A stretch of DNA of 64,000 bases from an uncultured Candidatus Rokubacteria bacterium (GTDB taxonomy: Bacteria > Methylomirabilota > Methylomirabilia > Rokubacteriales > CSP1-6). How positions within the stretch are numbered: position 1 is the first letter of the stretch; each line of letters begins with the position of its first letter. The stretch lies in NCBI GenBank assembly GCA_963771355.1, contig CAVYTA010000007.1, positions 224,001 to 288,000 on the forward strand, given 5' to 3'. The notes beneath the pieces are model-generated. The model was not told the DNA's origin. It worked only from the letters and a program-made list of their open reading frames with translations, and ran no database searches. The position numbers were made by a program, and so were the translations under genes. Positions 48,305-53,580 of this stretch are shown here, piece by piece.

Positions 48305-48452
48305 CCGCCTCCCGCGTAACATGTAACAGTGTAAGACTTTCCGTTGGAATCGTGTAAGAAATTCTCGCGGGCCATTGGGGGGCGTCATGCCCGGCGGCGG
48401 AGCCTCGTCGGCGCACATCGTAGCCAACACCAATTATTCTCGACTCGAAAGG

Positions 48453-48468
48453 TGGCACGACGCCTGCT
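48453..48468 (+). promoter_or_regulatory. Putative sigma54 promoter
   Basis: TGGCACG-ACGC-CTGCT (GG-N10-GC); AT-rich repeats ~100-140 bp upstream. Confidence 0.55.
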
Positions 48469-48482
48469 GTTGTTGCGCCTCC

Positions 48483-49181
48483 ATGAATGCACTACTCGCT
48501 CCCCGGACACCCGCCTCGTCTCCGCCCTCGTCTCCCGCCTTTCCCTCCGCGCCGTACGTGCGTGGCGGCGTGCTCGCTGCCGTGCGCCGACTGCGGTACG
48601 AGGTCTACTGTCTCGAGCGACGGTTCGTGGACGCCGCCACCTGCGCGGAAGGGCAGGAGAGCGACGAGTACGATCCCCACGCGGTGCACTTCGCGGCGAC
48701 CACCCCGTCGGGCTCGGTGGTGGCCACGCTCCGGCTGGTACTCGATTCGCCGCTGGGGTTTCCACTGGAAGCGCATGCGGACGGATTGATCGAGACGCGG
48801 CCGGGGACGGAGCGGACGCGCACCGGGGAGATCTCACGCCTCATCGTGGCGCCGGACTATCGCGCCGGCACCATCCGCCAGCCGCTGATGCTGTTAGGCC
48901 TGTTCCGGCACCTGTACGAGGAGTGCTGCCGGCTGGGCCTCGCCTACCTGGTGGCCGGCATGGAGGGCAGCCTCGCGCGCCTGCTCCGGCGCCTCGGCAT
49001 TCTCTTCCTGCCTCTCGGCGCCGCCATCAACTATTTTGGCGAGGTGGTGCCCTACGGCGCCACGGTGGCGTCGATGCGGCGAGGGTACGAGGAGGTCCTC
49101 GACTACGAGCGGACCTGCCTGATCGGAAGCGCCTCCCCATTCCGCTACTTCCGCGTGAGCGCGAAGGACCTTACCCGCTGA
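48483..49181 (+). CDS. N-acyl amino acid synthase FeeM/LuxI-like GNAT acyltransferase
   Basis: RLRYEVYC.E, ESDEYD, TLRLV, GEISRL. Confidence 0.8.
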   Translation: MNALLAPRTPASSPPSSPAFPSAPYVRGGVLAAVRRLRYEVYCLERRFVDAATCAEGQESDEYDPHAVHFAATTPSGSVVATLRLVLDSPLGFPLEAHADGLIETRPGTERTRTGEISRLIVAPDYRAGTIRQPLMLLGLFRHLYEECCRLGLAYLVAGMEGSLARLLRRLGILFLPLGAAINYFGEVVPYGATVASMRRGYEEVLDYERTCLIGSASPFRYFRVSAKDLTR

Positions 49182-52776: not shown

Positions 52777-52836
52777 CGCCATCGCTGGAAAGTCCCTCCC
52801 CGCGGGGGCACACTTGAGTCGGGAGGGAACGCCGCG

Positions 52837-53580
52837 ATGGATTTGAGGCGACGGGGACTGCTATTGGGGAGCGGACTCTTGCTGCTTGCCCCCCGCCGGG
52901 CCTGGAGCCAGGGCGCGCTCGAGCGCGAGCACGCCCCGCGGCTCGCCATGCCGATCCTGGCCGAGGATTCGGCGGCGGTGCCGCTCGAGGTCTCGGTGGA
53001 GCACCCCATGGAGCCCGATCACTTCATCCGCTCCATCGAGGTCACGCTCGACAAGGACCCCGTGCCCTGGAAGGGCAAGTTCCTCTTCACCCCCGGCAAT
53101 GGCCGCGCCTGGGCGGCCTTCACCATGCGCTCGGGCGCCGGCGGCCTGGTGCGCGCGGTGGCGGAGTGCTCGCGGCACGGGAAGTTCACCGCCACGCGCG
53201 AGGTCCGGGTGGCCGAGGGCGGCTGCGCCACCGCGGCGCCGGTGGACCGGGCCCGCATGGGGAACCCGCAGCTGCGGCTGCCCGGCTCGCTCCGGCCGGG
53301 GCAGGTCGTCGAGGTCAAGACCAAGGTGGACCACGACTCGCAGACCGGGCTCGCGCTCAAGGGTGGGAAACACGTGCGCGAGGCGCCGGAGTTCTTCATC
53401 AAGGAGATGCTCGTCTATCTCGATGCCGAGAAGATCAGCGAGTTCCAGATGGGCTCGGCCATCAGCGCCAATCCGTTGATCCGCTTCCCCCTCAAGATCA
53501 CGAGGAGCGGCACCGTCCGGGTGGTGTTCGTGAACAGCGAGGGTCAGCGCTGGGAGGCTTCCCAGCCCGTCCGTGTCTAG
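52837..53580 (+). CDS. Tat-exported SoxY-like domain carrying SOR-type metal ligands, fused to SoxZ
   Basis: RRRGLL Tat; EHAP, HPMEPDHFI, CSRHG; VRVAEGGC; SoxZ-like VDHDSQTG, ISANP. Confidence 0.8.
   Translation: MDLRRRGLLLGSGLLLLAPRRAWSQGALEREHAPRLAMPILAEDSAAVPLEVSVEHPMEPDHFIRSIEVTLDKDPVPWKGKFLFTPGNGRAWAAFTMRSGAGGLVRAVAECSRHGKFTATREVRVAEGGCATAAPVDRARMGNPQLRLPGSLRPGQVVEVKTKVDHDSQTGLALKGGKHVREAPEFFIKEMLVYLDAEKISEFQMGSAISANPLIRFPLKITRSGTVRVVFVNSEGQRWEASQPVRV

Follow-up and report, generated by a model that had tools for sequence, protein, structure and literature searches.

In a 64,000-nucleotide stretch from an uncultured Candidatus Rokubacteria bacterium (hereafter the window; contig CAVYTA010000007.1, positions 224,001 to 288,000 of the forward strand), an earlier note made from the sequence alone had described one open reading frame (ORF) as a periplasmic SoxYZ fusion carrying the iron site of a superoxide reductase (SOR). 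This ORF lies at 52837..53580 on the plus strand of the window and encodes 247 residues, comprising a Tat-type signal, a SoxY/SOR-type domain and a SoxZ domain. Its GC content by codon position (0.68/0.48/0.93) follows a coding-type pattern, and the third-position value together with the homologues found rules out a wrong reading frame. Domain 1 (residues 29-130; 52921..53226, +) is an immunoglobulin (Ig)-like beta-sandwich that matches both SoxY and one-iron (1Fe) SOR by Pfam and VIA-align, and domain 2 (residues 142-247; 53260..53577, +) is assigned to SoxZ by the same two methods. The profile scan proposed earlier placed all three families over their Pfam cut-offs, namely SoxY (79.1 bits against 28.4, residues 34-130), SoxZ (64 against 25, residues 152-242) and Desulfoferrodox (PF01880; 42.7 against a gathering cut-off of 22.2, residues 29-116). 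The top PDB sequence matches were the Ignicoccus SORs 4brj, 4bk8 and 4brv (E 4e-8 to 1e-7), ahead of SoxY 4uwq_B and SoxZ, and the residue numbers first given for H32, H56, H62, C111, H114 and C130 are all exact in the ORF.

Homologues were taken from the best 120 of 376 proteins, 117 of which were aligned with the query to give 118 rows (mean column identity 62%); P0007, P0023 and P0033, which cover 81-85% of the query, are left out of this alignment. The first predicted metal ligand, H32 (52930..52932, +), aligns with the first SOR histidine and occurs in 118/118 rows. Predicted ligands 2 and 3, H56 and H62 of the HPMEPDH loop (53002..53022, +), are present in 117/118 and 118/118 rows, and the predicted axial cysteine C111 and fifth ligand H114, forming a CxxH motif (53167..53178, +), in 118/118 each. 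In the alignments with PDB sequences these residues fall onto the His/His/His/Cys/His positions of the SOR centre, which, according to the accessible part of PMC3116461, consists of four histidines and one axial cysteine with a free sixth site. G128-G129-C130 (53218..53226, +) aligns with the arm GGC of 4uwq_B and would form a SoxY-type arm with C130 as the sulfur-carrying residue; this cysteine is kept in 117/118 rows. The earlier note had let its claim hang on conservation in homologues, and all five ligands and C130 were indeed found in at least 117 of the 118 rows. These rows are close kin (61-100% identity); in 41 rows drawn from two clades, whose median identity with the query is 0.46, H56, H62, C111, C130 and H166 were kept in 41/41, H114 in a fraction of 0.85 and H32 in 0.78. 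H166 (53332-53334, +) is an invariant histidine of domain 2 (118/118 rows) that aligns with H56.

The order of the five SOR ligands was thus as first described, but the accompanying comparison of EHAP with the EKHVP of SORs turned out to be out of register, since R30 (present in 88/118 rows) aligns with the SOR glutamate and E31 with the Lys/Thr position. The Glu-Lys pair that commonly, though not universally, precedes the first SOR histidine is therefore replaced here by R30/E31; a neelaredoxin without the glutamate exists, judging from the title of a reference within PMC3116461.

When 1.84 billion representatives were searched with a profile, 1363 matched, and the best 150 of these were taken; after filtering of partial rows and removal by hand of 8 SoxZ-only or frameshift-like rows, 105 cluster representatives spanned the domain. 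The number of ligands among these 105 was bimodal, with 58 carrying 0-1, 5 carrying 2-3 and 42 carrying 4-5 (0/1/2/3/4/5 ligands in 45/13/2/3/13/29). C111 and H114 were both present in 41, both absent in 60, and the cysteine stood alone in 4. Because the counts are bimodal, a chance motif was ruled out as the source of the ligand pattern. The conservation of the ligands makes a real metal site very likely, and by homology iron would probably be the metal bound.

The AlphaFold model of the protein (mean predicted local distance difference test, pLDDT, 88.7) consists of two beta-sandwiches and a disordered N-terminus. When domain 1 alone (pLDDT 90.5) was compared with 48,161 chains by VIA-align, the top eight were all SoxY, SOR or SoxZ: SoxY 2oxg_Y ranked first (Z 12.8, root-mean-square deviation (rmsd) 1.8, 91 aligned) and SOR 6gq8_A second (Z 12.2, rmsd 2.5, 94 aligned), followed by SoxZ 2ox5_Z (Z 12.2), SOR 4d7p_A (11.9), 1dfx_A (11.0), SoxY 2nnc_A (10.8), 1y07_A (10.3) and 4uwq_B (9.8), with generic Ig folds at 8.9 or below. 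The fold match to SOR 4brv_A had a Z of 10.9 (rmsd 2.4, 105 aligned), and the domain 1 profile matched SoxY and SOR chains about equally (E 4e-9 and 6e-9). Domain 2 matched SoxZ of 2ox5/2oxg with a VIA-align Z of 13.9. In hhalign the two domains aligned weakly with each other (E 1.8e-4, probability 48.7) with H56 placed onto H166, which therefore suggests that the SoxZ domain is a degenerate duplicate of domain 1. Whole-protein Foldseek returned mostly SoxZ and generic Ig matches, and the ESM Atlas gave one match at 0.91 (a SoxY+Desulfoferrodox cluster) and a pointer at 0.85 to a fused cluster, which serve as a lead only. With both profiles over cut-off, both folds matched and the residues conserved, the proposal of a hybrid between a SoxY carrier and a SOR-type site is supported.

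The model also bears on how the arm and the site could interact. C111 and H114 lie at a hairpin ahead of strand 115-125, while C130 comes after this strand, beyond its distal end; a beta-strand rises 3.3 Å per residue, and by this topology estimate the C130 thiol would sit at least roughly 15 Å from the site within one chain. The arm would accordingly be placed at the pole opposite the metal site and, via the linker, next to the H166 end of domain 2. Since the topology sets C130 at the opposite pole, direct Fe-arm chemistry inside one molecule is unlikely, which weakens the earlier interpretation in this respect.

The N-terminus carries a predicted twin-arginine signal peptide (residues 1-24; 52837..52908, +) with RR at positions 5-6 and a probable cleavage after A22-x-S24. 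R5 and R6 are each conserved in at least 90% of the 118 rows (pLDDT of the region about 50), a TatFind-like pattern matches 108/118 rows, and TatC is encoded in the genome; the Tat assignment made earlier thus agrees with conservation and host, with the motif as its sole basis. Because metal-free SoxY is also of Tat type, export by this route is no argument for a cofactor.

The protein belongs to a widespread family and is no one-off. Its named relatives are mostly Rokubacteria/Methylomirabilota. In a scan of 236 genomes of the phylum the matches fell into tiers, from which 60 stretches were compared. In a second fused clade (about 40% identity) H56, H62, C111 and the arm cysteine are present in 20/20, H114 in 15/20 and H32 in 11/20. 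Stand-alone SoxY proteins of about 155-170 residues, met among the 105 representatives, form a further group; they have an RR signal, keep the complete site and end in GGC. In a metagenome scan with the stand-alone profile, the best 80 of 247 confirmed loci had the CxxH in 78/80 and the C-terminal GGC in 77/80 (the two loop histidines were part of the search pattern and are not counted as evidence). Arm cysteine and site are thus kept together in three divergent groups, and the source names in the profile search include Nitrospirales and, for a distant fusion, Acidobacteriota. By comparison, C111/H114 were absent and at most one ligand histidine was present in 24 SoxY rows of canonical type, in a single AACIE-type row and in 4 further fusions, of which two were confirmed as TIGR04557 members. 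As a side observation, the gene was also found at 89% and 58% identity in L004 (a record titled archaeon Nitrosocosmicus) and L035 (Limnocylindria), both with Rokubacteria-like neighbours on contigs that are possibly mis-binned.

By the NCBIfam cut-offs the protein is outside SOR (TIGR00332, 20.6 bits against 61.9), canonical SoxYZ (TIGR04488, 61.8 against 125; TIGR04490, 52.3 against 76) and its best match TIGR04557, the quinoprotein dehydrogenase-associated SoxYZ-like carriers (106.4 against 140). With canonical SoxYZ (Paracoccus pantotrophus 2OXG/2OX5, Thermus thermophilus 4UWQ, Chlorobium SoxY 2NNC) it shares both folds, the arm GGC, the AEDxxxVP and DP motifs, the RR signal and the Y+Z pairing; it differs in being fused, in a host without SoxA and SoxB, and in the five SOR ligands, which canonical SoxY of the same phylum lacks. 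With 1Fe SOR/neelaredoxin, including TAT-SOR (Ignicoccus 4BK8, Nanoarchaeum 6GQ8, Giardia 4D7P; SORGOdb), it has in common the order and spacing of the His4Cys set, the fold (Z 10.3-12.2), PF01880 over cut-off and, as in TAT-SOR, the twin-arginine signal. Unlike TAT-SOR, which is made of a signal and a centre II domain alone, it has an extra arm cysteine and a SoxZ domain, and unlike 1Fe SORs in general its relatives lie in sulfur-gene neighbourhoods. The fused SoxY-SoxZ arrangement, the internal GGC and a link with YVTN/YncE-type propellers are shared with TIGR04557 carriers (compare SoxYZ-S2/S4 in the accessible part of PMC11237559), whose true members lack the ligands.

For the relationship between the families, we built a maximum-likelihood tree of 71 domains from which the ligand columns and the arm had been removed (94 columns, which is few; 5 SOR-like rows left out). 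The 8 SORs (97/86) and 26 metal-free SoxY-type rows (99/99) were split, with 37 site-clade rows between them, and the same pattern was obtained with the ligand columns kept. These data suggest that site-bearing SoxY is likely an ancestral grade between SOR and metal-free SoxY; forcing the site-bearing rows into one clade was not rejected by the approximately unbiased (AU) test (p-AU 0.256), so this placement is likely rather than established. Under either topology a single loss of the site would explain the data when the tree is rooted on SOR, a root that is assumed. Homology of SOR and SoxY is supported by the profile and structure matches and by the tree; of the evolutionary link proposed in the earlier note, the kinship therefore stands even without the ligand columns, and the ancestral placement is what the AU test leaves unproven.

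True Tat-signal SORs occur in two genomes of the same class (L139:1489-1953 on the minus strand, and L140; L251 and L252), next to rubrerythrin, DJ-1 and rhodanese genes. The L139 protein passes TIGR00332 (64.4 bits against 61.9), and Tat-SORs of this type align with the stand-alone SoxY profile in hhalign at 98.9% (E 3e-17, 139 columns), and the N-terminal DP-NLT-E-H-P stretch is part of this match. For exported SORs a class name, TAT-SOR, is already in use in the accessible part of PMC3116461, so that the periplasmic location, which the earlier note had taken as unusual, is no novelty. Two-iron SORs are encoded in the Tat-SOR genomes as well, as is an exported SOR-like protein that is divergent and has a loop of the form HxGNN..HH. 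Separately, 28 loci (L141-L168; for example L141:628-1803, + and L163:1255-1797, +) encode a second exported SOR-like single-domain Rokubacteria protein, in which the four histidines are kept and the axial cysteine is replaced (EPTH as against ECxxH). This protein explains a PF01880 tier near E 1e-17 in roughly 55 genomes, and in the two loci inspected its gene adjoins CarboxypepD_reg-type and cyclase/response-regulator genes.

Genomic neighbourhoods were compared in the three site-bearing groups. In the 37 close-relative loci (L004-L040, some of which share one genome or are kin), the commonest order is a Mo-bisPGD-fold/Fe-S subunit, NrfD, cytochrome c, moeA and the SoxYZ-fusion gene, followed by flavocytochrome c sulfide dehydrogenase (FCSD) with cytochrome c or a YncE-type propeller, and then a convergent TsuA/YeeE gene. 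FCSD or TsuA was found in 19 of these loci (TsuA in 16, FCSD in 9), MoeA in 19, the propeller in 9 and copper genes in 5, and SoxA, SoxB and pyrroloquinoline quinone (PQQ) dehydrogenase in 0 of the 37. The second fused clade has a cassette of its own, with extracytoplasmic function (ECF) sigma/anti-sigma factors, a Tat metallophosphoesterase (15 of 20 loci), a SoxA/TsdA-domain cytochrome (19), the SoxYZ-fusion gene, cbb3 subunits I/II (subunit I in 15) and CtaG; it is seen in L079, L081, L084 and L091, and in family f13 flanking di-haem cytochrome c peroxidases take the place of the oxidase.

The stand-alone cassette consists of YeeE, a propeller, the site-bearing SoxY, a SoxB-like protein, SoxZ, cytochrome c, DUF302, SCO and a thioredoxin-like protein. 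In the 80 loci a SoxB-like gene was present in 60 (425-469 bits, under the cut-off of 550) and YeeE in 50 by clustering or 11 by tblastn with a Rokubacteria query, and none of the 80 had SoxA at distances of up to 7 kb (only 17 loci extend to 10 kb). Across the 137 loci of the three groups (37+20+80) there was no PQQ dehydrogenase, and among the loci examined no relative stood beside canonical SoxAX. SoxZ accompanies the site-bearing SoxY, either by fusion or, where the stand-alone loci are longer, as a gene close by.

In the host genome, which is 99.8% complete, the single SoxY and the single SoxZ domain are both in this ORF, and no other SOR domain was found. The same genome gave no SoxA match, and its best SoxB-like match reached 129 against 550 bits; SoxB occurs in 10/43 genomes with a close-clade match (E < 1e-83), many of them incomplete. 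FCSD, TsuA and Mo-enzyme genes are present elsewhere in the host. Its contig C6 holds a Mo-enzyme-NrfD-moeA/tsuA cluster lacking the SoxYZ fusion, in which moeA and tsuA abut where relatives hold the fusion gene; here (C6:1137553-1146263, L137), as in L016:2-7877, an alternative-complex-III/Qrc-like operon precedes moeA and the convergent tsuA; at its N-terminus the large subunit retains the Fe4S4 motif CxxCxxxC, and this may be a Mo-enzyme version with catalytic activity. A second cluster (C5:632176-639303, L136) encodes FCSD, cytochrome c, TauE, Fe-S/NrfD and a Psr/Phs-like Mo enzyme, with the FCSD and cytochrome genes at 632-634 kb, and likewise has no SoxYZ. In the relatives L098, L101 and L102 canonical soxYZ comes after a C5-type cluster, in some cases together with soxXA-soxB, and some SoxY proteins of such clusters end in AGCAA or PGCAA and not in GGCGG.

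In the window itself, the gene lies between a CDP-alcohol phosphatidyltransferase/major facilitator superfamily (MFS) pair and a convergent CoA-transferase III, a pattern largely limited to the nearest relatives. The absence of adjacent sox or quinoprotein genes, remarked on in the earlier note, holds for the neighbours scanned (48.4-57.0 kb), but relatives do adjoin sulfur genes. A FeeM-like, PEP-CTERM/exosortase-associated acyltransferase gene (48375-49178, +; TIGR03694, 113.4 bits against 111.95) is conserved in the nearest relatives, upstream of their amidohydrolase-MFS block. A Shine-Dalgarno-like GGGAGGG (52821..52827, +) stands in the sequence 9 nt ahead of the ATG. It could pair with a CCCTCCC in a leader hairpin (52794-52827; z -2.37, 4/200 shuffles), which we rejected as a conserved riboregulator, as it is partly kept in just 1 of 4 relatives. 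Contigs from RNA libraries of 3 studies cover parts of the gene, and those of the deepest run extend over all 30 bins of an 8-kb stretch; carry-over of DNA is possible, and they are therefore not taken as evidence of expression.

The working mode that these features most likely point to is that of SoxYZ with an added SOR-type centre. SoxYZ holds intermediates on its arm cysteine, the adduct being probably a sulfane; SoxAX does the loading and SoxB the hydrolysis (accessible part of PMC5336275). We give about an even chance to the specific proposal that the protein carries sulfane sulfur in the periplasm and has, at the opposite pole from its arm, a likely Fe(His4Cys) centre for one-electron chemistry; with arm and site so placed, the simplest model would be one of two working faces. 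The protein would fold in the cytoplasm and then be exported by Tat, after which Cys130 may take up and pass on sulfane sulfur (persulfide or polysulfide) among periplasm-facing partners encoded in trans, such as FCSD, the TsuA/YeeE transporter and the Mo-bisPGD/NrfD complexes. The Fe site could act as a one-electron station, exchanging electrons with c-type cytochromes in either direction, and might discharge electrons onto superoxide formed where sulfide meets oxygen. That the carrier role is primary and the metal accessory seems rather probable, because the SoxZ pairing is consistent, the arm cysteine is invariant, the neighbours are sulfur enzymes, and two loci (L039 and L117) lost C111/H114 yet kept the arm cysteine and their FCSD/TsuA neighbours.

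Several points weigh against a sulfur carrier with an iron centre. Convergence of the ligands on one site rests on the alignment and the fold superposition, and the arm is an internal GGCAT, unlike the free C-terminal GGCGG of canonical SoxY. According to the accessible part of PMC11237559, TIGR04557-type SoxYZ fusions with an arm cysteine adjoin carbon-metabolism dehydrogenases, so the arm cysteine alone is no proof of sulfur oxidation. The neighbours in the window (CDP-alcohol phosphatidyltransferase, MFS, amidohydrolase, CoA-transferase III) are uninformative on sulfur; 11/37 close relatives have no sulfur, MoeA or copper neighbour, a further 5/37 lie within copper clusters, and many of the loci are kin and hence not independent.

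The protein might instead be mainly a periplasmic superoxide reductase similar to TAT-SOR, with the arm cysteine and SoxZ feeding electrons or docking a donor. Such a role would fit the presence of all five ligands, the Desulfoferrodox score, the top PDB sequence matches, the true Tat-SORs of the same class (L139) that match the stand-alone family over 139 columns, and a Fur/PerR-type regulator upstream in one second-clade locus (L086). It is harder to reconcile with the score far under the TIGR00332 cut-off and the Glu/Lys pair out of register, and with the second fused clade, which loses H32 in 9/20 and H114 in 5/20 and keeps the arm cysteine in 20/20. The host, moreover, has two Fe/Mn superoxide dismutase matches, one Cu/Zn superoxide dismutase and no rubredoxin match, and the recurrent neighbours of the family are sulfur enzymes, whereas a true Tat-SOR adjoins rubrerythrin and DJ-1. 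We therefore consider a mainly superoxide-reducing role unlikely.

The absence of SoxA from the 80 stand-alone loci, despite their SoxB-like and SoxZ genes, from 37/37 close-relative loci and from the host genome raises the question of whether the metal site is itself a sulfur-oxidising catalyst, binding sulfide or thiosulfate at the open sixth position (the free axial site of the SOR centre; accessible part of PMC3116461) and loading the arm cysteine, probably of a second molecule, in replacement of SoxAX. The modelled arm leaves strand 115-125 at the end far from C111/H114, with the estimated thiol distance given above; the loci have flanks of 7-8 kb, and SoxAX may be encoded outside them; a SoxA/TsdA-domain cytochrome of its own is present in the second fused clade, and L039 and L117 lost the site without losing the context. 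A catalytic role is on this evidence quite improbable.

Copper is a further candidate for the bound metal, with the protein acting in copper handling or oxidase assembly, or its site sensing metals or redox state. The five close relatives in copper clusters (L032, L035, L037, L038 and L040) have the fused copy, with an arm GDGC, among genes for multicopper oxidase, SCO, DsbD_2, CopA and CusA-type resistance-nodulation-division proteins; SCO-family genes follow the stand-alone cassette in 20/80 loci, and in the second fused clade the gene is followed by those for cbb3 subunits and CtaG. This reading appears very unlikely, given that the SOR iron centre is matched in both ligand order and fold, that 19 of the 37 close relatives have sulfur neighbours against 5 with copper neighbours and none has both, and that the SoxZ domain and the arm cysteine would be left unexplained. 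Finally, a TIGR04557-type role as a quinoprotein-associated carrier in trans, with a structural or vestigial metal site, would agree with the best NCBIfam match, a host PQQ dehydrogenase over cut-off (on C6, a contig other than that of the SoxYZ fusion) and the recurrent propeller (206 bits to TIGR03866, a PQQ-associated propeller, cut-off 287), and is highly improbable in view of the score under the TIGR04557 cut-off (which, with the lack of ligands in true members, rules out simple membership), the real members of the same phylum (L110, 231 bits; L115, 226 bits) that lack the ligands and fall in the metal-free clade, the lack of PQQ dehydrogenase in all three sets of loci, and a ligand conservation too strict to be expected of a vestige.

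A broader scenario is tentative and, in our view, somewhat doubtful. In it His4Cys-SoxY(Z) would be the surviving ancestral Sox carrier: a GGC arm was added to the C-terminus of an exported SOR, the protein was duplicated, one copy decayed to SoxZ (keeping one histidine), and the iron was lost at a later stage from canonical SoxY. Several undescribed modules of periplasmic sulfur oxidation that need no SoxAX (with a SoxB-like hydrolase, FCSD, TsuA/YeeE, YncE propeller or cbb3 oxidase) would then centre on the metal-bearing carriers, and the carriers' own iron would do one-electron chemistry that couples sulfur oxidation to superoxide removal.

Fused or divergent SoxY has been described (PMC11237559), and the words "metal" and "superoxide" are absent from the main text of that paper. 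We found no paper joining SoxY with superoxide reductase, desulfoferrodoxin or neelaredoxin in a search that left most subscription journals outside, and an earlier remark on the similarity of the SoxY and SOR folds in the original SoxY structure papers is possible; the one article naming both SoxY and desulfoferrodoxin proved to be unrelated. The hybrid is thus real, conserved and apparently undescribed.

SoxY is regarded as a carrier without a metal, and SOR as an antioxidant enzyme found in anaerobes. The presence of both functional signatures in one widespread family ties the two by sequence, beyond the common Ig fold, and offers a concrete origin story for SoxY and SoxZ. Databases label these proteins variously as SoxY, SoxZ or desulfoferrodoxin, a flag for mis-annotation, and genomes are therefore scored as "partial Sox" or "SOR". 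The protein is small and soluble, making the claims on iron, superoxide and persulfide directly testable. As a likely sulfur shuttle that is exported and probably bears iron, it would also be a likely evolutionary bridge between the SOR and SoxY families, which are usually considered apart, and it draws attention to sulfur modules free of SoxAX, so far unstudied, in abundant soil Rokubacteria and in marine bacteria.

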